This document shows, piece after piece, positions 5,206-61,100 of a DNA stretch of 64,000 nt. The DNA is from Octopus sinensis (Eukaryota), in the NCBI RefSeq assembly GCF_006345805.1, contig NC_043020.1:27528001-27592000 (forward strand), read 5' to 3'. Made by a program: the position numbers and the translations under genes. The notes below the pieces were generated by a model that ran no database searches, was not told the origin of the DNA, and saw only the letters and a list, made by a program, of their open reading frames with translations. Numbering within the stretch: position 1 is the first letter of the stretch; each line of letters opens with the position of its first letter.

Positions 5206-5420
5206 ACCGGAGTAAACACATAAATGTGAAACAAGGTGGAAAAAAGAGTACTCAAATACCAGTGGTAGAGTAATATGCTTTATTTTAAGCAGCAGAAAAT
5301 TCAACAAAATCTGTTACTCTGAGTTTCTCGTTGCCGTTCATCAGACAGTTTTGTCTGATGAACGGCAACGAGAAACTCAGAGTAACAGATTTTGTTGAAT
5401 TTTCTGCTGCTTAAAATAAA

Positions 5421-5421
<1 letters not shown>
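5206..5421. mobile_element. Penelope-like hairpin element with minimal hammerhead in each arm
   Basis: Perfect 70-bp inverted arms (5278-5347 / 5352-5421), 4-nt loop, (TA)n flanks, left side extended. Confidence 0.75.
5350..5389 (+). ncRNA. Minimal type I hammerhead motif (mirror copy on - at 5311-5348)
   Basis: TTTGT CTGATGA A CG-GCAA-CG A GAAA CTC-A-GAG TA ACAGA. Confidence 0.6.
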
Positions 5422-5487
<66 letters not shown>

Positions 5488-5684
5488 TTGTATGTATATA
5501 TCCACACATAGTTTTGGCCATTATGTTAATTATTGGCTAAGAATGGACAAACATAAACACACTAAGTGGATGGAATTCGTGGTAACATGTCAGCAGAGAC
5601 GACAAATGTAATAGACATACAATAACAATAAGCTCATTATAAACACACACACACAAGCTATACAATAAGCCCATTATTTCATAT

Positions 5685-5722
<38 letters not shown>

Positions 5723-6622
5723 CACAGAAAGCGAATTTTCTGTTATCTACACGCACTACACAAAAATTCAAAATATACACACTATACACTAAGCTAATTT
5801 ATAGACACACATTTCTCCCTTCTTTCATTTTACAGATTCAAAACACGTTGGATTTTTTTGAATTATCATAATGCAGACACTATAACGTCTAATGGGATTT
5901 TAATTGAAGTTAATCAAGATATTTTCTATGCTTTTAAAATATATATTTCTTTCTCAACCAAAGACAAAATGACATTAGTAAAAATACACAGTAGGCAACA
6001 AAAAAAACTATATATATATACACACACACATATACCCCATACATACATGCTTACAAACAAGCACTCGTGGGTCCTATCCAATTTGGGACGGTATAATTAC
6101 GACGGATATTAGACAAATGTTGAGAAATTAACGTATAACAGGTAAACAAGACTTGGTAAACAGCATGTATTTAGAAAATAAAACAACATTGGACATTATT
6201 TATGAACCAGTATCATTAAATACACAAGAAACACTACTAATAAATGAGGGCAAAATCTGTGGTCGTAAGATTTGCTAGAACTAGTAGCTAAATCTTTAGA
6301 ATGACACCCTAATGTCTTTAGATAAGGAATAGCTGTGTATATAGTATATAGCACATCGTTATCGTGTGTAACCCTAATTCTGTGTAGGCAGTCACGGTTG
6401 GGTTTGGATTATATTTATTATATTTCACCATAGGTCAGGTCTGTTAATTGGCAAAGTTAACCTAGGGTTAAGTGTAGATATAGGCATTTATAAAACCTTA
6501 TTGACAGTAATTAGCAATTTATTGCCTGGCTACAAACCCGTCTACCCCTTTCGAACGGTACATGACATGCAAAGGGCTATATTTAATAGATTAAACATTA
6601 CTTTCCATATATATATATAGGT

Positions 6623-6683
<61 letters not shown>

Positions 6684-7447
6684 TATACACACGGTTAGCA
6701 ATTTGTGGCGGCGGTTTATAAAAGGTAAGAAGTTAAGACGACCCAGAGCGAAATTCGAACACAGAACAGCGAAATGGTGAGGAATCAGTCTAAACTGATG
6801 TTATAATTAAGGTAATCGATTTAAAGAAAGAAAAAAAAGAAAATCAATTAACGATGCTAAATTTCTTAATTGAATAAAATAAATTGAACCAAATGTAAAT
6901 AAAATAATTATACAATTAAAAAAAACAACAACGAAAACCCAACATCGAGGATGATAGACGTATACATATATATGAAGACGTGTGTATATTATATATATAT
7001 ATATATATACATACATACACAATTATATGAAAACATACATAGACACAATTATTATTAAAACATATATATATACATTTATATGAAAACTCATCTATTCAAT
7101 TATGATCGTGTGTATGTATACATGTGTGGGTGTTTAATATACATATGTATATAACATATACGCAATTATATATATGCGTATGTACATTTCATCCATCCAT
7201 ACATACACATATATATATATATGTATATATACATATATATAATCTGAGATTTGCCATGAAGACAATCACAGAGAGAGAAAGAGACATGAGACAGACAGAC
7301 TCGTCACAGGCAGAGAATGGAGACGTTGTGAATGTCTGTCTTTATAAAACGGGCACTGAGGCTTATGGAGGGCTTTTTTTTTTCCTCTCTTCGCTAATAA
7401 CCATCAGGCATGTGGCGCATGCAAGGTGGGAAACACAAGTAACTTAC

Positions 7448-7465
7448 CGCTTTGTTAGAAGCCAT
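7448..7465 (-). CDS. Probable first coding micro-exon (MASNKA) of an unidentified gene running leftwards, copy 1
   Basis: Minus strand reads ccaagATGGCTTCTAACAAAGCG|GTAAGT: YY1-like CAAGATGGC start context, perfect donor, downstream of a CpG-rich 5' region (7660-7850). No downstream exon was identified in the window. Confidence 0.6.
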
Positions 7466-7659
7466 CTTGGAAAATATTTGTTGATACGAACCGCTCCCCC
7501 TTTTTATAAGCCAGGGCAGGATCGGGTCTTTTTTTTTTTGTGGTTTTTGTGGTATTTTTGTGTATTTTTGTGTATGTGCGTGTGCGTGCGTGCGTGTGTG
7601 TGTGTGTTGGTGTTGGTGTGTGATGTTTTTTTTTTTTTTTATTTATTGTTTTTTTAGTT

Positions 7660-7990
7660 GGCCCTCGTCAGCCGAAACCGAGAGCAGCAGCAGCAAAGCA
7701 AGCGGATTTTGAAAGCGGAGGAGAAAAACGAATAACGCGCGGCGCGCGGGGCGCACCATCATCATTAATAATAATAATAATAATATTACAGACTCCGACA
7801 TCAATTACTCCGACGTCACCGCCGCCATCACCACCATCGTCATCACCGTAGTCAAGAGGAATGAGACAGAGGAAGGGAGGAGGAAGGAAGGAAGGAAAAG
7901 AGTAGAGAGTGAGAGAGAAAGAGAGAGGGGGAAGGAGAATGGAAGAGAGAGAGAGAGAGAGAGATGGAATGAGAGACAATGAGAGAGAAA
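7660..7990 (-). promoter_or_regulatory. CpG-rich 5'UTR/promoter segment followed by GA-rich tract (duplicated at ~8860-9190)
   Basis: gcgcggcgcgcggggcgc CpG cluster and (GA)n-rich tract upstream of the MASNKA ATG. Confidence 0.4.
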
Positions 7991-8141
7991 AACGAGAGAT
8001 TATTATGTAATTAGTTCAAACAGTGCGTGCATATCTCTCTCTTTTTACTTCTCTACCACTTTTCACACACATATATATATATATAGGTGGTTGCATATAT
8101 ATATATATATTTATTATATATATATATATATATAATATATA

Positions 8142-8172
<31 letters not shown>

Positions 8173-8306
8173 CATACAACCACCTACACACACGCACATA
8201 CATACATATATACACACACATATACATATACATACATACATACATATATATCTTTATATGTATATATAGATATATGTATATGTATATATATAATTATATA
8301 TATATA

Positions 8307-8339: not shown

Positions 8340-8671
8340 ATATATTATATATATATATATATATATTATGTACATGTATATATATATGTATATATATGTA
8401 CATGTATATATATATGTATATATATATATATCTATATATATATATGTATATATATACATATATATAATCTGAGATTTGCCATGAAGACAATCACAGAGAG
8501 AGAAAGAGACATGAGACAGACAGACTCGTCACAGGCAGAGAATGGAGACGTTGTGAATGTCTGTCTTTATAAAACGGGCACTGAGGCTTATGGAGGGCTT
8601 TTTTTTTCCTCTCTTCGCTAATAACCATCAGGCATGTGGCGCATGCAAGGTGGGAAACACAAGTAACTTAC

Positions 8672-8689
8672 CGCTTTGTTAGAAGCCAT
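8672..8689 (-). CDS. Probable first coding micro-exon (MASNKA), copy 2 in tandem duplication
   Basis: Identical to copy 1, offset 1224 nt. Confidence 0.55.
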
Positions 8690-9305
8690 CTTGGAAAATA
8701 TTTGTTGATACGAACCGCTCCCCCTTTTTATAAGCCAGGGCAGGATCGGGTCTTTTTTTTTTTGTGGTTTTTGTGGTATTTTTGTGTATGTGCGTGCGTG
8801 TGTGTGTTGGTGTTGGTGTGTGATGTTTTTTTTTTTTTTATTTATTGTTTTTTTAGTTGGCCCTCGTCAGCCGAAACCGAGAGCAGCAGCAGCAAAGCAA
8901 GCGGATTTTGAAAGCGGAGGAGAAAAACGAATAACGCGCGGCGCGCGGGGCGCACCATCATCATTAATAATAATAATAATAATATTACAGACTCCGACAT
9001 CAATTACTCCGACGTCACCGCCGCCATCACCACCATCGTCATCACCGTAGTCAAAGAGGAATGAGACAGAGGAAGGGAGGGAGGAAGGAAGGAAGGAAAA
9101 GAGTAGAGAGTGAGAGAGAAAGAGAGAGGGGGAAGGAGAATGGAAGAGAGAGAGAGAGAGACAGATGGAATGAGAGACAATGAGAGAGAAAAACGAGAGA
9201 TTATTATGTAATTAGTTCAAACAGTGCGTGCATATCTCTCTCTTTTTTACTTCTCTACCACTTTTCACACACATATATATATATATAGGTGGTTGCATAT
9301 ATATA

Positions 9306-9384
<79 letters not shown>

Positions 9385-11274: not shown

Positions 11275-11650
11275 ATACGATAGAGTGTATATTTAAACAC
11301 ATAAGGAATCCACTTAGAGGGAATTCAGCACGCTAGAAAGAACAGCTAGGTTCTGTAAACCACAAAAATAACGGATAAAATTCGACAATGGTAAATGTTT
11401 TTCATTTCCAAATTTATTCCTGTCAAATTTTATCCGTTATTTTTGTGGTTTACAGAACCTAGCTGTTCTTTCTAGCATGCTGAATTCCCTATAAGTGGAT
11501 TCCTCATATGTATAAATATACACTCTATCGTATGACTAATATATAGTCTTCTTGACTAATTTTTTTTTGCACCTCAGGCCACTGGAAATGTGAATTTTGA
11601 TTGAATGTTTTAATTTTAATTAAATTCCATTTCCCTTTGACATGATTAGA
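11275..11650. mobile_element. Inverted-repeat element (113-bp arms), no hammerhead seen
   Basis: Arms 11275-11387 / 11421-11533; extension to (TA)n near 11650. Confidence 0.65.
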
Positions 11651-20853: not shown

Positions 20854-23800
20854 GTATGTCACAAATAATACCTTTATTTATTCTATTTTATTTAATGTTT
20901 TAATATTCCCTTGAAACGGTGCGCGATAAGATTTTTTCAGGTCGACTTTGATTTTCAAACTTTCAAGCGAAGGACGGCGAGGCACGATTAAACGAACACC
21001 AGTCAAGTATCGAAGTGGTTGTAGTTATTATTATTACCATTGAGTCCCAGATCTGGCGTTTCAGGCGTGACCATCTCATTTATACACACGTGCGATCTTG
21101 TATTTTTCCAAAAGCGTCTTTATTTTACAAGGAAAAACGAGTGTGATTTGCAGTAGCTTGGCTGCTATTTCTCGCATTTCGGAGCGACCGTGTCATCACC
21201 CTGTAACCCTAACCAGGCGGTTTGGCTGAATCACTCACGTGTTCGATTGAAAGCTTTTCGCTCTTTAGTTGCGATCTCGTTAACGTTCTGAGTTCCCGAG
21301 TTCACGTCCCACCGAAGTGAACTTTATTCTGTGAACAAACAAACAACTGGTCTTGTTTTGCCACCTCAGTAGAATTACTATCGCTTGTTCAAATCGAAAC
21401 GTGTGTGTTCTCAGTTAATTTCATCGGCTGGATTGTTGTAGACCAGATTAACGCCCATACTGGTGTCTGTCTGAAGGTTTCAATCGACTGATCTTACTGG
21501 GATTGTCTCCCCTGTTTAATCTTTTTGTTATTGGACTGCAGCCATGCTGGAGTACTTCTGTGAAGGGTTTAGTTGAACTAATCGACACCCCCACCTCACC
21601 CCGTTGTGCTTTTAAGTCTGGACCTTGCTCTATTTATTATTCTCTTTTGTTGAACTGCTAAGTTACGAGGATGTAAATAAGTCGACACCAGTTGTAAAAC
21701 TGATAGGTGTGACAGACACACGCACACATGGCTCTGGTTGGCCTGGGGTTATAACAAAAGACACTTGCCCAATGTGTTGCACACTGGGATTGAACCAAAG
21801 ACCACATGGTTGTGAAGTAAGCTTCTTAACCACACGGCCACACCTGTTCTTTTATTCTTTTACTTGTTCAGTCATTTGACTGTGGCCATGCTGGAGCACC
21901 ACCTTGGAGGTTTTTTTCAGTTAAATACATCGACCCTGGGACTTATTCTTTATAAGCCTAGTACTTGTTCTGTTGGTTTCTTTTGCCGAACTGCTAAGTT
22001 ACGGGGGACACAAACATACCATCTGTTGTCAAGCAGTGGTGGGGTACAAAAACACACACACAAATATATACAAATGCATATACTCTTTACTCTTACTCGT
22101 TTCAGTCATTTGACTGCGGCCATGCTGGAGCACCGCCTTTAATTGAGCAACTCAACCCCAGGACTTATTCTTTGTAAGCCCAGTACTTATTCTATCGGTC
22201 TCTTTTGCCGAACCACTAAGTAACGGGGACATAAACACACCAGCATCGGTTGTCAAGCAATGCTAGGGGGACAAACACAGACACACAAACACACACATGC
22301 ATATATATACAAATATACGACGGGCTTCTTTCAGTTTCTGTCTACCAAATCCACTCACAAGGCTTTGGTCGACCCGAGGCTATAGCAGAAGACACTTGCC
22401 CAAGGTGCCACGCAGTGGGACTGAACCCGGGACTGTTTTTTTAAAAATCAACCTTATTAAACAAGTTCGTTGCCTGCTAATTACCTGAGTAATTATATTT
22501 GATCAAAGTGTTTCTTCTCACTCTATTTACATATGAGAGACCCTGACTGTGTGTGCGTTCAGTATGCAGAGGGCTCCCCTGAGCTAACAGTCTCACAGCC
22601 ATGCTGTTGGCATTTGTAATCAGCATGCTTGGAGTTTCTTCATTTCTACCCTGCCACCCGATATAGGTGCACTGCATGAGCATGGGGTGGTTAAGAAGTT
22701 TGATCTAGCGCCATGTGGTTTTGCACCCAGCTGTTTCACTACACAGCACATTGAATAAGTGTCTTCCGCTGTGTACGTGTGCTGACCAAGGCCTCGGTGA
22801 TGGATTTGGTAGAAGGAAACAGAAAGAAGCCCAGTGTGTGTGTGTGTGTTTTAGTAGAGTCAATAAAAAGAGTGCAATAAGCTATATATATATAATATAT
22901 ACTCTTTTACTTGTTTCAGTCATTTGACTGAGGCCATGCTGGAGCACCACCTTTAGTCGAACAAATCGACCCCAGGACTTATTCTTTGTAAGCCTAGTAC
23001 TTATGCCATCAGTGTCTTTTGCTGAACTGCTAAGTTACGGGGACATAAACATGCCAGCATTGGGGGGACAAACATATACACACACATACATACATATATA
23101 TGTCGCCATGATAGATCGTTAGCCACTACACATTTTTTTTCTCTCCTTGTTTTTTTCTGTGTCCCTTTCTGTAGAAGAGCGTAGGCTCGAAACGTAAAAG
23201 TCTTTTTCTATTCCTGAGCGTTATACTAATACATCTGTTTGTTTTTTTCGTAAACTCTCCCTATATATATATATATATACGAAGGGTTTCTTTCAGTTTC
23301 TGTCTACCAAATCCACTCACAAGGCTTTGGTCAGCCCGAGGCTATAGTAGAAGTCACTTGCCCAAGTTACCATGCAGTGGGCCTGAACCCAGAACCATGT
23401 GGTTCATAAGCAAGCTACTTACCATACAGCCACTCCTACGCCTAAGAGTGTATAATTGTGAACAAATCACAGTTATAACGGAGAGGGTTGCAAAAACCCT
23501 TACATGTCTAGAAATAGCAGTCAAAGCTGCTATAACCACTTGTATTATATCCCTTCACAATAAAAGCTGTCGGCGGGTGACATGACATAAAATTCAAAAC
23601 TTAAAAATATATATATATATATATACACACATACATGCATATATACATACACACACTCGTCATATGCATGTGTGTATTTGTGTCTCCTTGCCTTGATATG
23701 AAGCAGTAGTCGTAAACGAGAATCACAATCCAACGAGTGATGTCATCATTCTCTCCCAGTCTTCTGGGAAAACCCGTTCAGCCAAGGGGCATGTTTTATC

Positions 23801-26731
23801 TTGCTTAGGAAACAGGTGAGGCTTAGTAACCAAGAAGGGCGCTCAACAAACTCTATCTGACTCACGCAAGCATTGTAAAGGGAGTGTTCAAGTGCTGTTG
23901 ATGATGGGAAATCAGCCAATTTAGATATAATTGCCAGAAAATGGTAGCATATTTTTTTTATCTTTAGCAAAAAAAAAAGTTGCATTAATTACAAAAAATA
24001 GTGTTAATTACTGTGGATATTTTGTAATATTAATTTGTAAAATTGTGAGCTGACAGAATTGTTTGTGTGCCTGACAAAAGTGCTTAGTGGTATTTGTACT
24101 GCTTCTTTGCATTCTGAGTTCTAGTACTGCCAAGGTCAACTTCACCTTTCGTCCTTTCCGGGTCAATAAGGTAAAATGCTAGTTTAGGGTGACGAGATGG
24201 CAGAATCGTTAGCACACCGGGCGAAATGCTTATCGGTATTTCGTCCGTCTTTACATTCTGAGTTCAAATTCCGCCGAGGTCAACTTTGCCTTTCATCCTT
24301 TCCGGGTCGATAAATTAAGTACCAGTTACGCACTGGGGTCAATGTAACCGACTTAATCCATTTGTCTCTCCTTGTTTGTCCCCTCTGTGTTTAGCCCCTT
24401 GTGGGCAGTAAAGAAATAGGTATTTCATCTATCTTTACGTTCTGAGTTCAAATTCCACCGAAGTTGATTTTGCCTTTCATCCTTTCGGGGTTGATGTAAT
24501 CGACTTAATCCTTTTGTGTGTCCTTGTTTGTCCCCTCTGTGTTTAGCCCCCTGTGGGCAATAAAGAAACAAATAAGGTAAAATGCCAGTCAAGTACTGAG
24601 GTCAATGTAATTGATTGACACCCTCCCATCAAAATTGCTGGCCTTGTGCCAAAATTTGAAATGGTTTTTCGTTCCTTTTAAAGATATGCATTTATTTTTT
24701 ATCTTTTACTTGTTTCAGTCATTAGACTGTGGCCATGCTGGGGCACTGCCTTGAAGAATTATTTTTAGTTGAATGAATTGACCCCAGGGCTTATTTTTAT
24801 TTTTTTAAGAGAAAGAGAGAGAGAGAGCTATCTACATAAATGTGAATCAAGAAGATTATGCAAGGATTGTGTAATTTTCTCAGTTGATTTATTGAAATAC
24901 GTGTATGTTTTATAAAACTTAAAATACAAAATACATTTTGGGACGTAGTCAGTCCGCCTGTGCATACCTTCCTTCTTGGGACACAAAACTCTACTTGTGA
25001 AGACCTGTTGAGGCAAGTGAAAATCAAAATCGAAATCGATCAACATCAATGGAATTTGTAGTTGTGATACCAGTGCCGGTGGCACGTAAGAGAACCATCC
25101 GAACGTGGCCGTAGCCAGCGCCGCATCGACTAGCCTCCGTGCCAGTGGCACGTAACAAACACCATCCAAGCGTGGCCGTTTGCCAGCCTCGTCTGGCACC
25201 TGTGTCAGTGGCACGTAAAAAGCACCCACTACACTCACGGAGTGGTTGGCGTTTAGGAAGGGCATCCAGCTGTAGAAACACTGCCAGATCAGACTGGGCC
25301 TGGTGCAGCCTTCGGGCTTCCCAGACCCCAGTTGAACCGTCCAACCCATGCTAGCATGGAAAGCAAATGTTAAACGATGATGATGATGATTTTCTGTATT
25401 TTTTATTAACATCATACATATGACTTCGTTAGCTCAAATTAGTGTAATTTTATTACATTTCCCTTTTGCAAGCTTTTATAGTTTCACTAGGGTAAGGAGT
25501 GGCTCATGCAAGTCAGAACATTTTGCGCCTTGCCCTCAGACGTGCGTCTGTTTGTCATGTACTCAGGGTTAGGCACGTTCTTGGTACATGTATGCACATG
25601 ACCAGTAATAAACACATTAATTCATTCAAGTTCACTCATAAAATATTTTTGTTGTGGTTGTCATGATGGGTCACGCGTCATCCAGACATTCCACATTTGC
25701 AGTGACCAGAACTAATTAAAGTATTCCTTTGATTTACACCACACGAGCTTGTAAACGAGCATTGTTCGTTTCTAGGCTTCTCTAAATAAACATGTCTGGC
25801 AATGTGGTAATAGAACTTTGCTTAGAAACGGGTGAGTGTTGGCGAAGGAAGGGCTTTTGGCTGTACAAAAATTGGCCTCAACAAATTCTGTACAACCCAT
25901 GCCAGCATGGAGAAGCGGATGTTTAGACCAATGATGAATAGAGTAGACTAAGTATTTCACTTATTGCGAAGACATGTGGCTAAGGTGTTTGGCTTCCAGT
26001 TGTCAGGTTGTGAGTTCAATTCCTAGCGACACATTACATCCTTGAGCAAGACTCTTTTCTTTACGTTGCTCCAGTCTGTTCAGCTGGCAAAAATGTGTAG
26101 GACCTGTATTTCCGAAGGGCCAGTCTGGTTACATTCTGTGTTGTGCTGAGTTTCATTGAGAACTACATTAAGGATACGCGTGTCTGTGGAATACTCTGCC
26201 ACTTGCACGTTAATTTCACAAGCAGGCCGTTCCGTTGATCCGATCAGCTGGAACCCTTATTACCATCCACCACTACTTGGCAACCAGTGCTGGTTTGTTT
26301 ACGTCCCTGTAACTTAGCAGTCCAGCAAAAGAGAGCAATAGAATAATTACCAGGCTTTAAAAAAAAAAGCCCTGGGGTCAATTTTATGTGAACAAAATCT
26401 TCCAAGGCAGTGCTCCAGCATGGCCACAGTCAAATGACCTCTCGCACCTATCATACAGTGTCATTCTAAAAGTAAACAATCACTTCATTGAAATCTCAAA
26501 CCCACAAAGTAATTAAGTAATTACATAATGAATTCTTTTACTTGTTTCAGTCATTTGACTGCGGCCATGCTGGTGCACCGCCTTTAGTCAAACAAATTGA
26601 CCCCAGGACTTACTCTTTGTAAGCCTAGTACTTATTCTATCGGTCTCTTTTGCCGGACCACTAAGTTACAGAGACATAAACACACCAACATCAGCTGTCA
26701 AGCGATGGTGGGGGAGAAACACAGGCACACA

Positions 26732-26776: not shown

Positions 26777-28160
26777 TACCCCAAACCAGGGACTTTTCAG
26801 CATCCCTTCATATATATGGCTTAGTGGTTAAGATGCTGCACTCACGGTTGCGAGATCGTGGGTTCGATTCCCAGGCCGGGCATTTTATTGTGTTCTTGAG
26901 CAGAACGCTTCATTTGACGTTGCTCTGCGATCATTTCATCATCTGACATGTGGCACCCGTTGCACCTGTACAGGTAATATCGATTTGATGGAGGGAGTGA
27001 GGTAATGTCTACACAAACATTTGATCACTATTAACAGATCATCTATGTGGTTGTTCAGTAAGGAATTGTCGAACCCTCATACATCGTCTAACGACAGCAG
27101 AGTCCATTATATATATATATCACGTGACCGACCAGACCATCAGATGTTGTTACACATCGCTGGTCACAATGCGCAATAAACACTCACAACGCCCGGTCTG
27201 GGAATCGAAACCGCGATCCTGCGACCGCGAGTCCGCTGCCCTAACCACTAGGCCATTGCGCCTCCACATATATATATATATATATATATATTGTATGCAA
27301 GTGTGGGTGGTGAAAAGTTCCTGGTTTTAAGGGTATCACGAAAGGACTCGTTGGCAGCCCAACCTCCTGAGTTCTTTTATGAGGCTTAGAAAAACTGAAG
27401 GACCACTGCAATAAGCGTGTGAATCTGAGAAGGGAATATGTTGCATAAAATCATAATTAACTGATTCTCTTGTATTTTCTTCTACCCAAAGCCAGGAACT
27501 TTCCAGAACCCCCTCCAATATATATATATATATTACGGAGATGTACTTGCATAGCAAGTGACCTAATCTGAGATCGTGTGCTGGGATGAAAACAATTGCA
27601 GCGTGGAAGGTGTTTATAACCCATTTAAGAAACACACAGAATCCGTCAGATTCACTTCAACATTTAAATTTAATTCCGTGCTGCACGGAATTTTGTCAGT
27701 GAACAGGTCGCGGTCTCAAAGCGACGAATATATTTTGACAAATTAAATATAAATGTTGAAGTGAATCTAACGGTTTTTGTGTGTTTCTTAAATGTCCACG
27801 CTGCAATTGTTATATATATATATTTACATAAGGCCAAAGAGGGTACGGATGCCGCTATATATATTATATGTAGAAAAATACAAACTGGGACAAGAACGTA
27901 AAACATTTAGAAGACGATACAAAAAACACGGACGGGACATTCGAAGCCTTCAATCTTCAGTCAGGAACCGGATCATCCTCACAATTTCGGCTGATTAATC
28001 TTGAGATTGCTCCGATAAGAAATTGCTCGGATGATCCGGTTCTTGACTGAAGATTGAAGGCTTCGAATGTCCCGTCCGTGTTTTTTGTATCGTCTTCTAA
28101 ATGTTTTACATTCTTGTCCCAGTTTGTATTTTTCTCTCTCTCTATATATATATTTATATA

Positions 28161-33180: not shown

Positions 33181-33225
<45 letters not shown>

Positions 33226-36200
33226 CAGAGATGTACTTGCATAGCAAGTGACTTGATCTGAGATCGTGTGCTGGAACGAAAACAGTTGCAGCGTTGAAGG
33301 TGTTTATAAGCCATTTAAGAAACACACAAAAACCGTTAGATTCACTTCAACATTTAAATTTAATTTGTCAAAATATTTTCGTCGCTTTGAGACCGCGACC
33401 TGTTAGCACGATATTTTTGTCAGTGAACAGGTCGCGGTCTGAAAGCGACGAAAATATTTTGGCAAATTAAATTTAAATGTTGAAGTGAATCTAACGGTTT
33501 TTGTGTGTTTCTTAAATGGCTTATAAACACCTTCCACGCTGCACTATATATATACACACATATATATATATGTATGTATGTGTGTATATGTGTATGCATG
33601 TATGTGTGTGTGTGTGTGCGTGTCTGTGCTTGTGATTGTCCTCCACCACTGCTTGACAACGAATGTTGGTTTGTTTACATCCCTGTCACCTAGTGGTTTG
33701 ACAAAGGAAACAGAATAAGTACAATGCTTACAAAAATAAAACTGGAGTTGATTCATTAAACTACAATTTTTCAAGGCATTGCCCCAGCATGGCCACAGAC
33801 CAATGGTTGGAATAAGCAGAAGAATAAAAGAATACATTCTCTGCTTTGGTCTTATGTTCAAGGCATGAGAAAGCTTGAGTTTACATGAGAAGGCCTAACA
33901 GACCTGGTAGAAACAGCAGCCAAATCTCCCTCAAATCACACCTTACTGTCTTATGTATGTATATATATATGAGCCAATGAGGGGGACCTCTACATGGTAG
34001 CTAGACCTGGTAGAAATAGCAGCCAAATTTCCCCCAAATCACACCTTACTGTCTTATCTATGTATATATGTATGTATGAGCCTATGAGGGAGACCCCTAC
34101 ATGGCAGCTAGACATGGTAGAAATAGCAGCCAAATCTCCCTCAAATCACACCTTACTGTCTTATCTTTCTGCCACTTGGATATAGGTGTTATATTCGTCG
34201 TAAAAAACTTTCCTGTCACACACTCACGCACACACACACACACGCGCACACACACACACACACTCACACACACGCACGTTAGCTTACAATTTTATTTATA
34301 TATTTGCGTGTCTATGTGTTGAAAGAGGAAGTGGGAGGCAGAGTGAAAGAATCACTCACTACAGTAAGTGAATTACTATCATTTTATTCGTTGCCCACTG
34401 TGTGTGTGCGTTTGCGTGTGGTGTAAACCAGACTAAGAAAAGCATTTGACACACACACCAGAATGTGAGTTTTCTGTAAATTTTGCTTAATTGGAGTTTA
34501 AATTTTAAAAACTGGACCTGGCATGACGCGATGCATTGTACTCTCAAAAATGCTAGGTAAATTGTAATTGAAGAAATCCTATATTGTAGATTTGTATAAC
34601 TCCCAAAGGGAGGCAGATAAAATCTGCCTTTTATAATAAGAGATATATATATATATATATGTATGTATGTATGTATGCATGTATATATATGTATGTATGT
34701 ATGCATGTATATATATGTATGTATGTATGCATGTATATATATGTATGTATGTATGCATGTATATATATGTATGTATGTATGCATGTATATATATGTGTAT
34801 GTATGCATGTATATATATGTATATGTATGTATGCATGTATGTATATGTATGTATGCATGTATATGTATGTATGTATGCATGTATATGTATGTATGTATGT
34901 ATGCATGTATATGTATGTATGTATGCATGTATATGTATGTATATGTATGTATGCATGTATATATATGTATATGTATGTATGCATGTATATATATATGTAT
35001 ATGTATGTATGCATGTATATATATATGTATATGTATGCATGTATATATATATGTATATGTATGTATGCATGTATATATATATGTATATGTATGTATGCAT
35101 GTATATGTATGTATGCATGTATATATATATGTATATGTATGTATGCATGTATATATATATGTATATGTATGTATGCATGTATATATATGTATATGTATGT
35201 ATGCATGTATATATATATGTATGTGTATATATATGTATGCATGTATATATATATGTATGTGTATATATATATATATATATTTATACACACATGATGGGCT
35301 TCTTTCAGTTTCCATCTACTAAATTCACTCGCAGGGCTTTGGTTGGCCTGAGGCTATAGTAGAAAACACTAGCCCAAGGTGCCATGCTGTGGGACTGAAC
35401 TCAGAACCATGTGGTGGGGATCAGGCATCTTACCACACAGCCATGCTTGTCCACATTTCTTTGTTTTTTCATTTCCTGTTGACCCAGTTTCCTCCGTTCT
35501 ACAAGACCAGCGTTCCATTGCTAACCAAAATCAGAACACAAACAAACAATTAGCAAAGAACAACCTTCAGCGTCTGGAAAAACAGGACGGTGACATTGCT
35601 ATATTTGGATAATTGGATACAGCGAGGGGAGAGGGAGGATGATGAGGATGAATGATGTTGTTGATGATGATGATATTTGAGAGTATGTTTAGGAAGCTAT
35701 TTAATGGAACCACGGTGATGGTGCAGCATATATATATATTTAATCTCATGCTGTAAAATTTGTCCCCTGCCCTGGGCCTTTATTCACATTTGCAGCCAGG
35801 GCTGTGGAGTCGAAACAAAAAACTTTGACTCCGACTCCTCTGCTGTTGGCACCTCTGACTCCTCTTTATGTAATTAAGTAATTGTGGTCTACATGTCTCA
35901 TAAAGCATATGCATACTCTTGTACTTTTGGTAGGCCTCTATGTCATAAATGGTTTATATTAAAGAACTTACAGTATCACCCGGCGTTGCTCAGTTTTGTT
36001 TCGACCCTTTAGAATTGGAATTTTTGAAAAGTAAACATTTTGCATTATGTAGCTTGTTATTCTCTTTAAGTGAACATTTTTCTGGTTGAAATACACTGAA
36101 AAGTGGCGACACAGCAGTCCAAAAATCGTAAAAAAAAATAAGGATTTTCATAGAAAAAAAGCACCTTTTTGATGTAAATAATATTTGGTGCTAACATGGT

Positions 36201-44318: not shown

Positions 44319-45718
44319 TGTGTAGTAAGAAAAGAGAGAGAATGTAAAAAAGAAACAGAATGTCTGTGAGGGAGAGAGAGAGAGAGAGGTAATAGTGTGT
44401 TAGAAGGAAAAGGGAGTGTGTGTGAGAGAGAGGTAGAATGTAGCCTGTGGATGAGAGAGAGAAATAGATAGAATATATTATGAGGGAGTGAGAGAGAGAG
44501 AGAGAGATAGAAGATAGTGTGAAAGAAAGAGAAAAAGAGGAGATAGTGTGTGTGAGAGGAAGAGAGGAGATATAAGGTCTGTTTTATCTGTGTGTGTGTG
44601 AGAGAGAGAGAGAGAGAGTATTTCTTTATTTACCATAAGGTTGAGAAAAAGAGGGGTCGATAGGAGGACAGGCAAAACAAACATTGGGGTCAGGGTATTG
44701 AATAAGATGAGACGAAACAACAATATGAGTAAACAAACAATTAATATATACAATTAAATGAGAATTAAACAAAGAATGAATCGGGCAGTGTAATGGGTGT
44801 CACAAAAAAGGAATATGGGTGTGTATATATTTATTTATGTATAGTCATGTGTGTGTGTATATATATACATATATCTGTGTGTGGGTGTGGGTGTATACAC
44901 TACTCTTTATATTTCTCTATGCATGTGTCTGTAATTGTAGATATATCTGGCAGCCAAGGCAATCCAGCTAGTGACCACCCCCATCATTGTGTATACCAGG
45001 AACTAGATTATTCAATGTGTTTACTTTCATGTTTAAAGTAGCAGCGTGTATAATCTGAGGGTAATTTGACTGCTATTTCTGACAGTTTGAGTATCTACAT
45101 AGAGGCTCCTTTGTTGGCCTCCATGTTCATTTCTCCATGTATATATATATATATATATATATATTTAGTGTAGGAAGAAATGGAGCTGAACGAAGATTTA
45201 ACAAAATTCCTTTTTATTATTTTCTACATATGTTTCAAAAGCTGCAAAGTCCATAATTCGGATTGAATAAGGAGTCCATTTTGCAGCCTTCTCTTCAGGA
45301 AAATCCAGGAACTTAATTCTCCAACAAAATGCACAGCAAGCTTTTCGACAAACGCTCACGAGGAGCCCTTGGAATAAATGGCACAAACTGTCTATGCTGT
45401 GCATTTTGTTGGAGAATTAAGTTCCTGGATTTTCCTGAAGAGAAGGCTGCAAAATGAACTCCTTATTCAATCCGAATTAGGGACTTTGCAGCCTTTGAAA
45501 CATATGTAGAAAATAATAAAAAGGAATTTTGTTAAATCTTTGTTCAGCTCCATTTCTTCCTACACTAAATATATAAAACTTAAAATTTCCGCACTAAGGC
45601 ACGGATTTTAGGCCCCATGGCTGTAATCTCAACCATGCTTTTTCTGTTGTGATTTTTGCTACCCAGGTGTCGGTTATCATTTGAATAATCCGTAATAAGA
45701 TAATTCATTTATCTACTT

Positions 45719-45767
<49 letters not shown>

Positions 45768-48800: not shown

Positions 48801-51800
48801 GTGCTATTGCACTCTAGGGGTGCAGGTGCACCTGAATAGTGCAACAGTACTTGGGTCACACTGTAAAGTGGTTGACTCAGGAAGGGCATCAGGCTGTAAA
48901 AAAACCATGCCAAAGCAGACCCCGGAGCACAATGCAGTCCTTGGACACATTGGACCCTAAGAAACCATCTGACCCATGCCAGCATGGAACAGGGACGTTA
49001 AATGATTCTTCACTCCTGCTCCAGAACGTAGGCTGCGGGGTCACTCCGAAAAGCTCTATCTACAACGATTTCATCTCAATCAAAGGAGAGGGGCTTTCTC
49101 CGTCCAGGTTGCGGATCCGTGGAAAAAGCTGCCGGATGAGATAGTGAAAATGCCGATGACCGCTCGGTTCAAAGTCTCTCTTGACCACAAATGGCCTGAA
49201 CTCTTTGTATGACCACCCTCCCTGTACATAACTCCATGTCCCCCTACATGGCCTTGCTTTTGCTTTTTGAGCCAATAAGAATTGAATTGAATTGAATTGA
49301 TAATGATGATGATGATGTTGCACACTTTCGTATAAATTTGTACCAGGCGCAGGAGTGGCTGTGTGGTAAGTAGCTTGTTTACCAACCACATGGTTCTGGG
49401 TTTAGTCCCACTGCGTGGCATCTTGGGCAAGTGTCTTCTGCTATAGCCCTGGGCCGACCAATGCCTTGGTAGACGGAAACTGAAAGAAGCCCGTCGTATA
49501 TATGTATATATGTGTTTGTGTGTCTGTGTTTGTCCCCCTAGCATTGCTTGACAACCGATGCTGGTGTGTTTACGCCCCCATCACTTAGCGGTTCGGCAAA
49601 AAGAGACCGATAGAATAAGTACTGGGCTTACAAAGAATAAGTCCTGGGGTCGAGTTGCTCGATTAAAGGCGGTGCTCCAGCATGGCCGCAGTCAAATGAC
49701 TGAAACGAGTAAAACAGTAAAAGAGTAAAGACCAGTTTAAAAAAAAGAATATAGAGGAAAAGGAAGATTAGGAGAGGAAAAGGAAGAGGGGAGATTGTAC
49801 TGAAGCAGGGCGTCCTCTTTCTTTACTCATCTATTTACATTAAGCGATTGCAGCAAGAAGCGGGGGGGGGGGATATGACTGGGTAGGTGGGGGAGTGGGG
49901 GTGTGGGTGCCGTTTGGCTTATTTTGCTCTCCCCCCCACCTCCCTCCGTTTTGGTGATTACACTATTAGTCTGTTTCGTTGAATAAAGCCAAACCCCCAC
50001 CCCCCGTGTACATCTGTTTCTCCCCCGTCCCCTACGCCTACGTCTGTTCATCCTTCCCCTAATTCAAGTCTATTCTCTCTTGCACCCTTTGACTGTTTCA
50101 GTTTTACCTTTGCTCAATGCACAGCATGTTAAAAATCACACCCATATATACCCATATATATATAATTATTTATGGGTGTGGTAACCAGTGAATGCATGTG
50201 TTTATATGTGGGTGGTAGTGGTGGGTCTTTGTGTGTGTGTGTGGAGCAGGGCATCTTTGCTTAAGCATCTATTCGCCCCTCCATGCTATCATTATATAAT
50301 ACGTATTTGCATACACACTTTTGCAGAGGCATGGGGGTTCACACTTTAATTCCTCATCATATGCATGTCCCTGTCTGTTTATGTATATATGTGTTTAAAA
50401 ATAGGAGTGGCTGTGTGGTAAGTAGCTTGCTAACCAACCACATAGTTCCGGGTTCAGTCCCACTGTCTGGCACCTTGGGCAAGTGTCTTCTACTATAGCC
50501 TCGGGCCGACCAAATGCCTTGTGAGTGGATTTGGTAGACGGAAACTGAAAGATGCCCGTCGTATGTATGTATATATATATATAAGTGTGTGTGTATATGT
50601 TTGTGTGTCTGTGTTTGTCCCCCTAGCATTGCTTGACAACCGATGCTGGTGTGTTTATGTCCCCGTTACTTAGCGGTTCGGCAAAAAGAGACCGATAGAA
50701 TAAGTACTGGGCTTACAAAAAGAATAAGTCCTGGGGTCGAGTTGCTCGATTAGAGGCGGTGCTCCAGCATGGCCGCAGTCAAGTGACTGAAACAAGTAAA
50801 AGAGTAAAAGAGTATATATATATGTATGAATAAAGGCTTGGCTGTGTGGTAAGAAGCTTGCTTCCCAACCACATGGTTCCGGGTTCAGACCCACTGTGTG
50901 GCACCTTGGGCAAGTGTCTTCTACTTTAGCCATGTTTATCTTTGTCATTACCTGTATCCTATGAGCATAATATGCTTGCATATGTATGCCCAGGGTTAAC
51001 ATGGGTAATTTTACTGGTAATATAATGGATATTTTTATCCCTTAGACGGTTATTCCAACCTCTAACTCTACTAACCTATATATATATATATGTATATTCA
51101 AAATGTGACCGCGTGTGTACCGTTGGCGATTTTTTTTCCTCTGTCTTCCCTTCTCTGGATCTTTCCTTCTCCTATGTTTCCGACGAAGAGCTCCGCTTGA
51201 AACGTTAAACCCTCCTTCTTTCCTTCTTTCCTGAGCGTCCAATAATACTATATTTGTTCCACGTCCTCGCGTTGTTGTGTTTTTTGTGCTTTCTTGTTTG
51301 GATTAACTATATATATATATATGTGGAGGTACAATGGTCCTGTGGTTAGGGCAGCGGTTTCGATTCCCAGACCGGGCATTGTGAATGTTTATTGAGCAAA
51401 AACACCTAAAGCTCCACGATGCTCTGGCTGTAGGATGGTGGTGGTGGCGACCCCTGCTGTACTCTTTCGCCACAACTTTCTCTCACTCTTTCCTCTGTTG
51501 GCCTGCTCACTTAGCCAGCGGGGTGGCGTCATTTGAAGGCTAAACCAATGCGAAGCGCTTTGTGACCAGCGATGTGTAACAACATCTGATAGCCTGGTCG
51601 GTCACGGTGATCACAGTGATATATGTATATATACATATCAAAGAAACTAATGAACAAGAATGCAAAACATTCAGAGCGCTTTAACAGCAAGGCATACACG
51701 GAGGGGCAATGACCTCTGGGCACAAGGTTACAGGTCTTTTGATATTCAAATTCATCTATGGCACTTAGTCATTCTTTGTGTTATCGGCTACCCTCTCCCC

Positions 51801-54800
51801 ATCCTACTTCTTATCTATCTCATTCTCCCCTCATCCCTCTCCTCTCCCAAGGATGATAGAAGCAAAGTCAGACTATGGTGGTGGTGGTGGAATTTCAACT
51901 GGAATAAACGATGATAATATTTAAGTACATAAACGTAATGGAAATTTGAAAGCAGTTATAAAGTTCATTCAGATAAATGACCCGTCTTTGTTTCTTGCTT
52001 AGATTGGCATGTCTGTTTTTATGTTGAAGTTTGTCTTAGAAATTACTTTGCTGATTGATAGCAAAAGGAAAGGTGAATTGATTGATAGACAAGATAGCCA
52101 GGTAGATTGATAGATGTAGAGAAAGAGAAAGAGAGAGATTGATAGACATAGATAGGCATTCATAGATATATAGATATATATTTCAAAATGTGACCTCGTG
52201 TGTACCGTTGGCGAATTTTTCCCTCTGTCTTCCCTTCTCTGGATCTTTCCTTCTCCTATGTTTCCGACGAAGAGCTCCGCTCGAAACGTTAAACCCTCCT
52301 TCTTCCCTTAGCGTCCAATAATACTATATTTGTTCCACGTCCTCGCGTTGTTGTGTTTTTTTGTGTTTTCTTGTTTGGATTAACTATATATATATATATA
52401 TATTTTCCTCTGTCTTCCCTTCTCGGGATCTTTCCTTCTCCTTTGTTTCCAACGAAGAGCTTCGCTCGAAACGTTAAACCCTCCTTCTTCCCTTCTTTCC
52501 TGAGTGTCCAATAATACTTTATTTGTTCCACGTCCTCGCGCTGTTGTGTTTTTTTGTGTTTTCTTGTTTGGATTAAACTATATATATAGATAAATAGATG
52601 TGTAGAAAGACAAACAAGATGTCCACAAATTATCTTTACAGTTCAGAAAAAAAGTGAAAAAATAAGGATCAGTCATTAGGGGCCTCCAAATCTTTTGAGT
52701 TCTTTTACAGGGCTTAGAAAAACTGAAGGACCGCTGCAATAAGTGTGTGAATCTGGGAGGGGAATATCTTGAATAAAATCCTAATTAACTGATCCTCCTG
52801 TATTTTCGTTTACCCAAAACCAGGAACTTTTCAACCCCCTTTTATATACACCTTGGGAGCCAGGAAACCGACTCTATGAGCCTATATGAATCGGGAAGGC
52901 TCTTTGTAGCCTAATTTTATCCCAGACACTCACCACTATAGGCTATTTTTATTACTGTATTCATGTAGGAGGTTTCCATTATCGTGATGGCTTGCTTCAT
53001 ATTCAGCTGTACAGCTAAATTACTTGTTTTAGAAACGGTGATATTTACTGCTGAAGTACTTTCGTGAAGTTTTGTAATGTACTCTTAGATATCTTTAAGC
53101 ATTGCCTGCTTTAATGCACAACAGGCAACTTTTCTCAGACATGAGCTGCTGAAACTGGGACGCATCTGATATGCCCATGCAGCCTTTATGCTATCAAGTA
53201 CAGGTAAGACAGGTAGATAGGTATGCAGGTAGGTAGGATATGGAGGTAGGTAGATACACAGACAGACAAACAGGCATGCACACAAGGAAGGGTGGTTAGA
53301 GTGATAAATAAATAAATAGGTTGATAGAAATGGTCTTGATGTAGGAATGACTTCACTTGGCTTTGATTCTGAGGCTTATGATGGGGGAAAAGGTGGGGAT
53401 GTGTGTGTGTGGGGGGTTAGTGGAACAGAGTGCTCAACACGTGACTCTAGCACTTCAAAGGTAGATTTTGATGGCCTGTATCACTAAAATCACCAGAGAG
53501 GATGAAGAAGTGGGGAGAAACCCAGCCCATTTATATATGTGTATCCATCCATCCATCCATCCATTCATCCATCTGTCTGTCCGTCTATTTATCTATCTTT
53601 CGCTTGTTTCAGTCATTACACTGTGGCCATGCTGGGGCACAATCGTGGAGACTTTTAGTCAAATGAATTGACCCCCCTGGTACTTATTATTTTTTTGTAA
53701 AGCCCTGTACCTCTTCTATCGATTTCTTTTGTCAAACTGCCAAGTTATAGGGATGTAAATGTACCAACACTTGTCAAGAATTGGTAGGATATACACACAC
53801 ACACACGACAGGCTTTATTCAGTTTCCGTCTACCAAATCCACTCACAAGGCTTTGGTCGGCCTGAGGCTATAGTAGGAGACACTGGCCCAAGGTGCCACG
53901 TGGTGGGACTGAACCCGGTACCATTTGGTTGGGAAGTAAGCTTCTTACCACACAGCCACGCTCTTTTAACACTTTTGTTGTTATGTTTCTGTTTAAATAA
54001 GCTTCCCTTTTGTTTTAATTAATGCTGAAAATAACGAACGATTTAATGAAGCAACTTCTTTATTTTGCTGCTGTTTGGAACATAACAGAAATTTTTTGAT
54101 AAAAGCTTTTAATTTGAATTCCTCTTTTGTTACGATGCGTCTGTTGAAATACAATGTCTTTCATCTTCAACATCATCATCATCATCATCATTGTTTTAAC
54201 CCCCTCAGCTTTCAGATTATTCTGTTAAATGGATAGTTTATTTATTCACATCATTTTGAATTAACCCCTTTTGTTACCATATTTCTGTTGAGATGCTCTG
54301 TGTTTCTCTCAATTATTTTAACTATAACAAAGAATTTAGTAAAACAACTTAGTTATCATTAAGCTAGTGTTAGGAACATAAATTGTGACTAAAGTTTGGT
54401 GGAAGATTTTAATTCAAAACTTATGTAACCAAGACATTTGTACTACAGACCCTGAGATGGTTTCAGCTGGGTTGGTATCAAAAGGGTTACGAATTGTTTC
54501 TCTATTATATATTTTAACCCCTTTTCTTACCATATTTACTTTGAGATGCTCTGTGTTTCTTTCAATTAATTTTAAATATAACAAAGAATTTAGTAAAATA
54601 ACTTGGTTCTCATTAAGCTAGTGTTAGGAACTGTTATGATGTGGGTGCTTCCCACAGTTATGATGTGCAGCCACTGTTGTGACTGTAGCTATTGTATAAA
54701 CTCTAGTAGCCATGGTAATATCCTGGTATTGGATACGGTGTATCTCTTCTATACCGGAATGTTAATACACAACTTCATCTATTGTGCTATTTCCGATAGC

Positions 54801-57113: not shown

Positions 57114-57161
<48 letters not shown>

Positions 57162-57174
57162 CATACATATATAC

Positions 57175-57205
<31 letters not shown>

Positions 57206-58080
57206 CATATACATACATATATACTTATATATATACATACATATATATATATATATATACATACATACATATATACATTTATATATATATACATACATAT
57301 ATATATATATATATGTATGTATGTATACACACTCAGCTGTAGAAATGAGTTATGACATGACTGGTGCCAAGCTGTACTGGCCTTTTGCCTTTCTCTTGTC
57401 AAGCCATCCCACCCATGCCAGCACAGAAGGTGGATGTTAAACGACGACGATGATGATGATGATGTGTGTGTGTGTGTGATAGGCTTCCACACTGTTTCTA
57501 TCTACCAAATTCATTCAGAAGGCATTGGTTGGCCCAGGACAGTAGTCAATGGCATTTGTCCAAGGTACTGCATAGTGGGCCTGAACCTGAAACCATCTGA
57601 TTGCAAAGCAACCTTCCTAACCACCCAACCATACCTGCATCAATTACTGTATAAAATAATACATTTTACAAAATGCTCATGTCTTGAACAGAAGTTCTGA
57701 ACGCTTAAATTTTATTTAAACCCCGCCTCCAAAATAGTGGGTTACCTAGAGACCCTTTTTTTTTTCTGGTATTTGAGAACTACTGCCCCATAATTGATGA
57801 TTTCCATGAAAATTCCAACACTAATCAATTGTTTTTTCTTTTTTCTACTTTCTCTTTTAATTTTTTTTTTCTTGTCCAGTCAAGTATGGCACATTGTGGC
57901 TCAGTCCGCTGTGACATACATTATCCTGTTAGTGGCGCCGGCGATGCTGGCCCATAAGATTGTTTTTGTGTTTGCCATGGGTTACCTGTCCTGTATGCAC
58001 ATCTACCGGCAGTATTACGATTACGGAGGATATACAATGGATATAACGGGGTAAGTAAGCTGAGCAATAAGATATCACCA

Positions 58081-58118
<38 letters not shown>

Positions 58119-61100
58119 TGTGTCTCCACGTGTTCTCTGTGCATGTATGTATGTGTGTGTGTATGTATGTGTGTGTGTGTATGTATGTATGTGTGTGTAT
58201 GTATGTGTGTGTGTATGTATGTGTCTGTGTGTGTGTGTGTATGTATGTGTGTGTGTGTACGTGTGTCTCCATGTGTTCTCTGTGCATGTATGTATGTGTG
58301 TGTGTATGTATGTGTGTGTGTATGTATGTGTGTGTGTATGTGTGTATGTATGTGTGTGTATGTGTGTGTGTGTATGTATGTGTGTGTGTGTGTGTGTATG
58401 TGTGTGTATGTATGTGTGTGTATGTATGTGTGTGTGTGTATGTATGTGTGTGTGTGTGTACGTGTGTCTCCATGTGTTCTCTGTGCATGTATGTGTGTGT
58501 GTATGTTCATCTGTGTGTGTCTGCGTGCTCTTAGTTATAGCTTTATCTGCTTCAAGTTCTGAAGTTAAAAACAAATTGTTTCATGTTCTCTTAGAGTTTC
58601 TAAATTCTTATGTCATAAACCTCTTACAATTCTTGATGGTAAAAACAAAATTTCCAAAGTGTGTAACGTTTGTCATTCCTACACAAGATGGGGGTTCAAA
58701 TCCCACCAGCAGCCTTTGAGTTTTTTTAGCCAAAGGTTTTTTTAACCTAATATTTACAAGCTATTATAAGTTGAATGACTTATTTTTTATAGGCCTAGTA
58801 CTTATTCTATCAGTCTCTTTGGCCAAACTGCTAAGTTACGGGGATGTAAATACACCAACGTTGCTTGTCAAGTGATGGTGGGGGTACAAACACAGACACA
58901 CACATACACACATGTATATACGACGGGCTTCTTTCAGTTTCCGTCTACCAAATCCACTCACAAGGCTTTGGTCAGCCCGAGGCTAAAGTAGAAGACACTT
59001 GCCCAAGGTGACACACAGTGGGATTGAACCTTGAACCATGTGGTTTGTAAGCAAGCTACTTACCACACAGTTACTCCTATATATATATATATCGATGCCG
59101 AGTCAAGTACATCAACATCAGCAATATCAAAATCAAATTAAATAGAAATTGTATTTGTGAGCCCCGTGCCGGTAGCACGTAAAAAGCACAATCCAAACGT
59201 GGCCAGTACCAGTGCTGCTTTGACTGGCTTCCATGCTTGTGGCACATAAAAAGCACCATCCGATCGTGGTTGATGTCAGTTCCTCTGGCCCCTTGTGCCG
59301 GTGGCATGTAAAAAGCATCCACTACACTCTTGGAATTTTGGTGTCAGGAAGGGCATTGAGCTGTAGAAACACCGCCAGACCATATTGGGGTTTGGTGCAG
59401 CCTCCTGGCTTCCCAGACCCCAGTTGACCCATTCAACCCATGCCAGCATGGAAAACGGACGTAAAAATGATGATGATGATGATGATGATACACACACATA
59501 CACACAAAGAGCTTCTTTCAGTTTCCATCTGCCAAACCTACTCACAAGGCTTTGTTCGACCCAGTGCCATTGTAGAAGCCACTTGCCCAAGGTGCCACAC
59601 ATAGGCACTGAACTTTGTATATCTGTGTGTAAATGTGTTTCTCTTTGTGTATACATATATATATACGTTTAAATATTTGTTGTGCAAGATTTTTTATGTG
59701 AAGTCGTGTGTTGAAACAGATATTGTTATATTTTGGAATGGTCATTTTGCCAGTTTAGCCAATAAAAACACACGCACTATTTATTTGGTGTTATTTTGCT
59801 TCAGTGTTATCTATTTTTTTACATTAATCTTAATATTATTTCGGCCAATGATGCGGTCACAGGAGTGTGACGAAAGAACTCTGGCCGAAATAAGATTAAG
59901 ATTAATGTAAAAAATAAATAACACTGAAGCAAAATAACACCAAATATATAGTGTGTGTGTTTTTATTGGCTAAACTAGCAAAATGACCATTCCGAAATAT
60001 AACAATATATATATATATATTTGTACGTACATAACATACACACTTTTTAATTAGCAGCTAATTATTGTTTTTTGATTGACAGGCCTCTCATGATCAGCAG
60101 CCAAAAGCTGACCAGTCTGGCGTTCAACCTCTACGATGGCAGGTATCGCGACGACAAAGATTTATCGAAAAGCCAGCGCCAGTATGCTGTCAAGTACGTA
60201 GATATTGGAGTATTTTAATCATGTGATCTCACGACCTCATGACCTTTGTGTTGTTCGTCTTGTTGCTGTTGTTATTGCTGAGCTCCAGATATCAAAGCTG
60301 TTCCAGATATGACCACTCCATTGTTTTTTTTTTATTTTTGGTTCTCCATGGTGGTTTGTGATTCGTTGAGGGAGTTTGGTTAGTATTTCTAGCAGATGTA
60401 GTGACCACATAGAAAATGCCCGTGATGTGTTGTTTTATTATTTTTTTGTATTTGTGTTTTGTATTTGCAATCCTTTTATCTTTTTACTTGTTCCAGGCAC
60501 TGTGCTGCGGCCATGCTGGGGCACCACCCTTGAAGGGCTTGAGACAAACGGGTTCAGCGCTAGCGCTCATTTTTAGAAGTTTGGTAGTTATTCTGTCAGT
60601 CTCTTTTGCCACAACTGCTAAGTTATGGGGATGTAAACAAACCAACATTGGTTGTCAAATTGTGGAGGGACACAAACACAGATACAAGAACAGACACAGA
60701 CACATATATGTACACTCACATGTGTACACACACATACATGTATATACACACACACACATATATATACACACACACATACACATATATATGATAGATAAAG
60801 GTCCTTCCTGAGTCTTATAGACTCATAAGGGCTGGTTTCCTGGCCTCCATAACATATATATTCCCCACCTGAGTGGGCTGGAGTATCGTGAAATAAAGAG
60901 TCTTGCTCAAGAGCACAATGCATTGCTCGGCGCAAGAATTGAAACCGCGATCTTACAATCACAAGTCCAACACCCTAACCACTAAGCCCCCACCACACAC
61001 ACACACACAGCAGGCTTCTTCATAACTTCCATTTATCAAACTCACTCACAGCCCCAAAACTGTAACAGAAGACGATTCGTGAGATTGAACCCAAAACCAC

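Follow-up and report, generated by a model that had tools for sequence, protein, structure and literature searches.

Hammerhead-bearing hairpins in an Octopus sinensis contig and their relation to truncated Penelope-like elements

We analyzed a 64,000-nucleotide stretch of the Octopus sinensis genome (assembly GCF_006345805.1, contig NC_043020.1, forward-strand positions 27,528,001 to 27,592,000), referred to as the window, which contains a series of inverted repeats and hammerhead ribozyme motifs next to (TA)n tracts. Eight repeat families are represented. Six of them are 5'-truncated ends of coding Penelope-like elements (PLEs) and not non-autonomous, and only two look like tandem units lacking an open reading frame (ORF). 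The hairpins are mostly a known insertion form from known clades. What appears to be new here is a quantified rule pairing one short and one long 3' end per hairpin, together with a contrast between clades, and a set of family-wide variants of the hammerhead core.

Elements in the window

Inverted repeats were found at all sites given by an initial annotation of this DNA, comprising seven hairpins, each with one extended arm, plus the non-hairpin types reported at 23.1 and 51/52 kb. Families are named after their window positions in kb, with the 27.5 and 33.2 kb hairpins belonging to one family.

5206-5426: 5.2 kb hairpin stub of a Hydra-type PLE; long arm 5206-5352 (-), short arm 5352-5426 (+); inverted repeat 5273-5347/5352-5426 (75 nt, 99% identity); canonical CUGAUGA hammerhead core in both arms, core start 5355 (+)
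11275-11648: 11.3 kb hairpin stub of a ~0.5-kb tandem-forming, apparently ORF-less unit; short arm 11275-11387 (-), long arm 11388-11648 (+); inverted repeat 11275-11396/11412-11533
23103-23261 (+): 23.1 kb solo 3' end of a Neptune-pattern PLE; hammerhead core CUGUNGA (A6U), core start 23169
27533-27811: 27.5 kb hairpin stub of a Nematis-pattern PLE; G3-C8 hammerhead only in the + arm, mutated beside GAA
27816-28135: 27.9 kb hairpin stub of an 834-nt tandem-forming unit; inverted repeat 27872-27988/28019-28135; core halves only
33223-33543: 33.2 kb hairpin stub, second copy of the G3-C8 family; inverted repeat 33287-33404/33426-33543; core start 33423 (+); cargo of a Helitron-like unit
45158-45722: 45.2 kb hairpin stub of a second Hydra-type PLE; short arm 45158-45395 (-), long arm 45395-45722 (+) with a 147-nt tail; inverted repeat 45158-45338/45395-45575 (181 nt, 98% identity); canonical core and long stem II in both arms
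51097-51308 (+): 51 kb solo 3' end of a Neptune-pattern PLE; core CCGACGA (U4C)
52181-52385 and 52398-52576 (+): two more solo copies of the U4C family
59668-60008: 59.7 kb hairpin stub of a Nematis-pattern PLE; long arm 59668-59847 (-), short arm 59845-60008 (+); inverted repeat 59720-59819/59909-60008; family core CUGAUGC (A9C), window copy additionally C3A

(TA)n adjoins nearly all hairpin ends, as first described, the exception being the left end of the 11.3 kb hairpin. Among the mapped copies, this contact depends on the family. (TA)4 lies no more than 20 nt from the 3' end in 72/76 copies of the 5.2 family, 60/62 of the 45.2 family and 47/50 of the 51/52 family, and in only 18/55 of the 27.5/33.2 family, at a background of 4.8%.

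Using a relaxed type I hammerhead descriptor of our own design (at most one core change, palindromic helix III), eight motifs were detected in the window (5.2 kb twice, 23.1, 33.4, 45.2 twice, 51.1 and 52.2 kb) whereas 20 local dinucleotide shuffles yielded 0.75 on average (range 0-4) and the reversed window none. By sequence and fold, a type I hammerhead with palindromic helix III is present in seven of the eight families, and the four palindromic stem III sequences listed in the initial annotation, AATATT, AACGTT and ACTC-A-GAGT among them, are all there. Its statement that most elements carry a hammerhead needs qualification for some copies. The 11.3 kb copy has none, its truncation lying just 3' of the family's canonical hammerhead, and the 27.5 and 59.7 kb copies, with their additional mutations, were missed by the descriptor. 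In the 27.9 unit, two core halves are present and stem I is absent, and a full hammerhead was not found even with two core changes and a stem II of up to 70 nt. An Rfam scan of the window gave, among the matches listed (150 of 285), only sub-threshold microRNA and snoRNA matches driven by repeats or hairpins.

The 36-nt hammerhead motif of the 5.2 family has 2,525 exact copies genome-wide. Family patterns matched 3,409 times for the 51/52 family, 8,694 times for the 23.1 family and, with positions 3 and 8 left open, 5,143 times for the 27.5/33.2 family, with 0 matches for reversed patterns; all these numbers are lower bounds on arms and not element counts. Counts based on descriptors thus miss thousands of motifs of the latter three families. 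In 750 kb of blind tiles, 36 descriptor matches were obtained versus 4 in reversed sequence, some of the former being due to chance, and 39 elements of the eight families were present. Such stubs are therefore common and easily misfiled as miniature inverted-repeat transposable elements (MITEs) or short interspersed nuclear elements (SINEs). Several further hammerhead families, some with very long stem II, were seen in the blind tiles (L310-L324, L330-L389), as was one more G3-C8 candidate (L365).

Linkage to Penelope-like genes

One natural reference per family was mapped onto all fetched loci (L numbers) and duplicates were removed by flanking sequence. In six of the eight families, longer copies extend upstream into reverse transcriptase (RT) and/or GIY-YIG endonuclease (EN) coding sequence on the same strand as the hammerhead. 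The copies in the window are therefore 5'-truncated ends of coding elements, and the connection to PLEs that had been proposed from the window sequence is borne out. The linking loci are as follows.

5.2 family: L181 and others
45.2 family: L019, L022, L030
59.7 family: L296, L292; only the thumb/EN part recovered
23.1 family: L305-L307
51/52 family: L309 only, decayed at one cysteine
27.5/33.2 family: L200, L366; ~1.37 kb of upstream sequence in common, only the thumb/EN part, loci decayed

The 5.2-family locus L181 has an open frame of 723 codons whose start codon was lost at the inversion junction. It contains RWK, DKT, PMG, YRDD and CxCX5C motifs followed by a GIY-YIG-like region without CCHH, and 2,092 of 7,999 scored candidates are homologous to it at E <= 1e-20. 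These motifs match the hallmarks set out in section 11 of PMC8557442 for the Hydra clade of PLEs with a C-terminal EN, which likewise targets (TA)n and has a hammerhead near its 3' end. With RWK, DKT, the CxCX5C linker, no CCHH and (TA)n insertion, the 5.2 family falls within this clade. The 45.2 family shares RW-, DKT and a Hydra-like EN type; unlike Hydra, its ORF is without the CxCX5C linker in L019, L022 and L030 and contains a long asparagine-rich insert (L022:3242-5895, - strand), and its tail measures 147 nt compared with the 30-40 bp described for Hydra-clade elements. We filed it as Hydra-like only, judging from these motifs. A 5.2-family stub lies in a TA run 5' of the L022 ORF.

In case of the 59.7 family, the EN region follows the Nematis pattern when compared with Fig. 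S2 of PMC8557442. That of the 27.5/33.2 family is related to it, with 38.5% identity over 192 residues in two independent loci. Their Cys linker, short spacer and CCHH-type EN make both families Nematis candidates, the recovered parts covering thumb and EN. The 23.1 and 51/52 families are linked to Neptune-pattern RT-EN genes with a CX2-5CxxC linker, a long spacer and a C-terminal CCHH-type EN, again matching Fig. S2. All three clade names come from motif comparison with PMC8557442 and not from a tree.

Several other assignments were considered and dropped. The 27.5/33.2 family had been taken as ORF-less with a fixed 5' end, as 30 loci showed no common upstream sequence; loose ends in public contigs and then L200 and L366 overturned this by extending the family upstream into an endonuclease gene, and positions -24 to -18 are a truncation hotspot only. 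In L218:1362-1568 (-), base pairing is predicted between this hotspot and the sequence at each of the two 3' ends. A Hydra-type EN in L290 was rejected as partner of the 51/52 family because it belongs to another family, a further Hydra-type one with a U4C hammerhead (L290:1900-2641, - strand), whose 3' end adjoins the 33.2 kb hairpin at window positions 33117-33186. The junction of the 27.9 unit with a Hydra-type EN in L080/L300 was left uncounted as a single, chimeric-looking case, and a decayed Hydra-type ORF near an 11.3 copy (L178/L299) was rejected since (TA)n and an inverted arm lie between them.

In the 11.3 and 27.9 families, the long end reads through into the element's own upstream sequence, giving units of ~0.5 kb and 834 nt. 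The 11.3 family forms a head-to-tail unit with a canonical type I hammerhead (read-through in L153, L161 and L171), and 30 fetched loci showed no linked ORF. The non-autonomous PLE/retrozyme label that the initial annotation had applied throughout is not supported for the six ORF-linked families. Judged by unit structure, it fits the 11.3 family as a putative retrozyme, for which self-cleavage and circular RNA are predicted. As a non-autonomous label it would also fit the 27.9 family, which lacks the hammerhead of a retrozyme. Both units would borrow the enzyme of a PLE.

Anatomy of the insertions

Partial tandems, 5' truncation, inverted copies and one-sided tails were all seen, matching EN+ (endonuclease-bearing) PLEs. 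In six families the 3' ends are bimodal, with a short and a long terminus 41-147 nt apart. The segment between them, the tail, leads on to the ORF start (L182 and L022). Thirty Helitron-amplified loci (L031-L060) were excluded before counting, and hairpins were classified when both ends lay within 12 nt of a terminus, which was the case for 91/108. Of these, 86 combined a short with a long end, while three were long+long and two short+short. Independent choice of ends would give at most 50% mixed hairpins; the pairing implies coupling between the ends of an insertion. The two Neptune-pattern families showed truncation only, with 0 hairpins in 68 and 71 copies (139 in total). Among the first 100 exact matches of the 5.2-family motif, close pairs were divergent in 22 cases, tandem in one and convergent in one.

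For the 77 short+long hairpins with adjoining arms, the arm reaching further 5' was the short one in 32, the long one in 31 and neither in 14. At the junction, arms overlap by 1-10 nt in 46/77 and by at least 3 nt in 27/77. Divergence within hairpins was 0.017 compared with 0.088 between hairpins in the 45.2 family, and 0.038 compared with 0.062 in the 5.2 family. Clusters of 5' ends in the 59.7 and 11.3 families were discarded as products of query-selected loci, and the 5' ends in the 23.1 and 51/52 families were set aside, as the subfamilies diverge from the single reference.

In the 5.2 family, both the short and the long end are immediately followed by a bulged hairpin (CUC...UU(U)GAG; L182:3820-3930, the long end being known from one locus). 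The pattern was not found in the other seven family references; similar letters follow the Hydra-2_Amil hammerhead in the PMC8557442 supplement.

Origin of the hairpins

We consider it probable, at roughly 60%, that the elements are hammerhead-bearing pseudo-long-terminal-repeat stubs of several PLE families and that their hairpins result from twin priming on one uncleaved RNA. The element's enzyme would nick both strands of an AT-rich target, and one intact RNA, serving both target strands, would be copied twice, one strand from each of two fixed start points. The two aborted cDNAs would then be joined at their truncated ends via short homology, while solo copies would arise when only one strand primes. 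PLE reverse transcriptases are not known to carry RNase H, so that the RNA would stay available for the second copy. Five hairpins have arms that hardly or not at all overlap in element coordinates, as twin priming predicts. A precedent is the Poseidon element PAc, of a clade different from those in the window, for which both target strands were nicked and extended in vitro from uncleaved RNA, with RT starting at two tail-bounding sites and hammerhead cleavage not required (PMC11167929).

Several points weigh against this account. The main weakness of the counts is that query-selected loci supplied most hairpins (10 hairpins lie in the 750 kb of blind tiles). In 17/108 hairpins, one arm fits neither end, and these are not among the 91. 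BLAST end extension can produce 1-2 nt of seeming overlap at the junctions. The gap between divergence within and between hairpins is small in the 59.7 (0.031 vs 0.037), 27.5/33.2 (0.047 vs 0.061) and 11.3 (0.059 vs 0.062) families, and similarity of the arms within a hairpin could come from gene conversion. Pfam recognized no family above threshold in six ORF pieces, and the domain calls therefore rest on motifs and homologs. Further, PMC11167929 reports no difference in start site between strands for PAc, whereas the genomic pairing here implies coupled ends per insertion. The twin-priming account as a whole is a reading of sequence.

Apices vary from copy to copy and cluster at short palindromes, namely CTAG (-14) for the 5.2 family and CCATGG (-74) for the 45.2 family; all six short ends lie at AT-rich, target-like sequence, and variants are common to both arms. 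These features would also be expected if the first cDNA of a PLE stub folded back at a short palindrome and EN trimmed one arm at an internal AT site, and PMC8557442 does ascribe the tail to EN-mediated resolution. We regard such folding back, the main rival of twin priming, as possible but less likely, because the five hairpins with non-overlapping arms would then require cutting of single-stranded DNA, because solo copies occur with either end type and short-ended ones are common, and because both tail boundaries map as RT start sites in the Poseidon system (PMC11167929).

That the hairpins are non-autonomous retrozyme-like units spreading via hammerhead-cleaved circular RNA appears improbable, since six families join ORFs and two of eight at best would fit, namely those with read-through of the long end into sequence upstream of the hammerhead (11.3) and with 834-nt tandem copies (27.9), the latter having no full hammerhead. 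Apices that differ among copies argue against it as well, and so do the 5' ends, which are not piled up at the predicted cut (14/25 bystander 5.2 arms end at -16 to -2 and one at ~+30); the whole hammerhead is kept in most copies. Foldback or MITE-type DNA transposons share long, near-perfect inverted arms in a TA context with the elements described here, but the latter have no fixed internal segment, unequal arms, frequent solos and a linkage to RT/EN genes. Assembly artefacts, in turn, conflict with opposite-strand joints that are also present in independent public contigs (of guessed type). Both of these explanations are largely refuted, and we assign them next to no probability.

Core variants

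The unusual core diversity pointed out in the initial annotation is supported: the variants G3-C8, A6U and A9C are family-wide, and U4C mostly so. Stems differ wholly between families, yet pairing is maintained within each. The 27.5/33.2 family core, GUGAACA, corresponds to a C3-G8 pair swapped to G3-C8, in the context of a 7-bp stem I, a 5-bp stem II, a palindromic helix III and U17. When any base was allowed at positions 3 and 8, 5,143 matches resulted, the first 100 comprising 96 G3-C8, 2 C3-C8, 2 G3-G8 and 0 C3-G8. A canonical C3-G8 subfamily was considered and rejected, as only five matches exist genome-wide, about the expectation for double mutation; hence there is no covariation within this family. 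U6 was present in 58/58 arms of the 23.1 family, with position 7 variable as expected, and C4 in 48/62 arms of the 51/52 family; about half of the arms of these two families were fetched with patterns that fix the variant, and their counts are partly circular. The 59.7 family showed C9 in 26/26 arms and A3 in 4/26.

Natural U3-A8, A6C and U4C cores have been published (PMC3088659, PMC4209133), and G3-C8 is described as a partly active laboratory mutant (PMC11167929, PMC3884650). Natural G3-C8, A6U or A9C cores were not found in a literature search that had most subscription papers and several supplements outside its reach. The hammerhead table of PMC8557442 is without the A6U, U4C, A9C or G3-C8 cores seen here.

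A further, rather doubtful proposal that goes beyond these observations is that Hydra- and Nematis-type enzymes may use obligatory asymmetric twin priming on one RNA, and Neptune-type enzymes a single start that yields no hairpins. Some of the usual constraints on the hammerhead would then be lifted, and large families could fix G3-C8, A6U and A9C cores that standard descriptors miss, and G3-C8/U17 might be an active natural ribozyme. How PLEs make inverted repeats and one-sided tails is a question posed in PMC8557442. The 86/91 pairing together with the Neptune contrast leads to a single-molecule prediction that is addressable in the existing in vitro system, and the fixed core variants are natural test cases for hammerhead catalysis.

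Relation to known systems

Inverted 5'-truncated copies, one-sided tails and (TA)n preference are published features of the PLE insertion unit (PMC8557442, Fig. 2). The architecture there is identical to that in the window, but no count of short+long pairing and no clade contrast was found in the parts of that paper available. Dual opposite-strand minimal hammerheads are described in PMC4209133. The initial annotation knew of no description for octopus, which is outdated: the supplement of Craig et al. 2021 (PMC8557442) includes Hydra-1_Obim from octopus with (TA)n preference and a hammerhead. The window-family hammerheads are unlike the one listed there for Hydra-1_Obim, and in its stem I and helix III the 5.2-family hammerhead follows the pattern of Hydra-2_Amil. 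For Octopus vulgaris, 31 recently active Penelope-like families are reported in a paper whose main text does not contain the words hammerhead or ribozyme (PMC13282606). Metazoan non-LTR (long terminal repeat) retrozymes (PMC7229834; bioRxiv 10.64898/2026.07.22.740005) share with the 11.3 family a short ORF-less head-to-tail unit and a type I hammerhead. In contrast to them, the 11.3 family is mainly seen as truncated hairpins and solos that have PLE-type ends, and not as arrays.

Other features of the window

The 33.2 kb hairpin has been captured by a ~1.9 kb composite (window 32727-34643, - strand), which we take to be Helitron-like on the basis of its terminal features. Its landmarks are a 3' hairpin with a CTAG end at 32727, an inner 5' end at ~33117 and an outer 5' end at ~34643. 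The Helitron-like flanks are common to 30/30 loci compared, and all three landmarks are present in 21/30 under a strict pattern. Positions 7245-8170 and 8467-9380 form a near-identical tandem duplication (~1.2 kb) of GC-rich, gene-like sequence between TA tracts, which is either a local duplication or an assembly error. Many common SINE-like repeats occur at 26267-26711 and elsewhere in the window, and two opposed copies form a weak inverted repeat unrelated to the hairpins.

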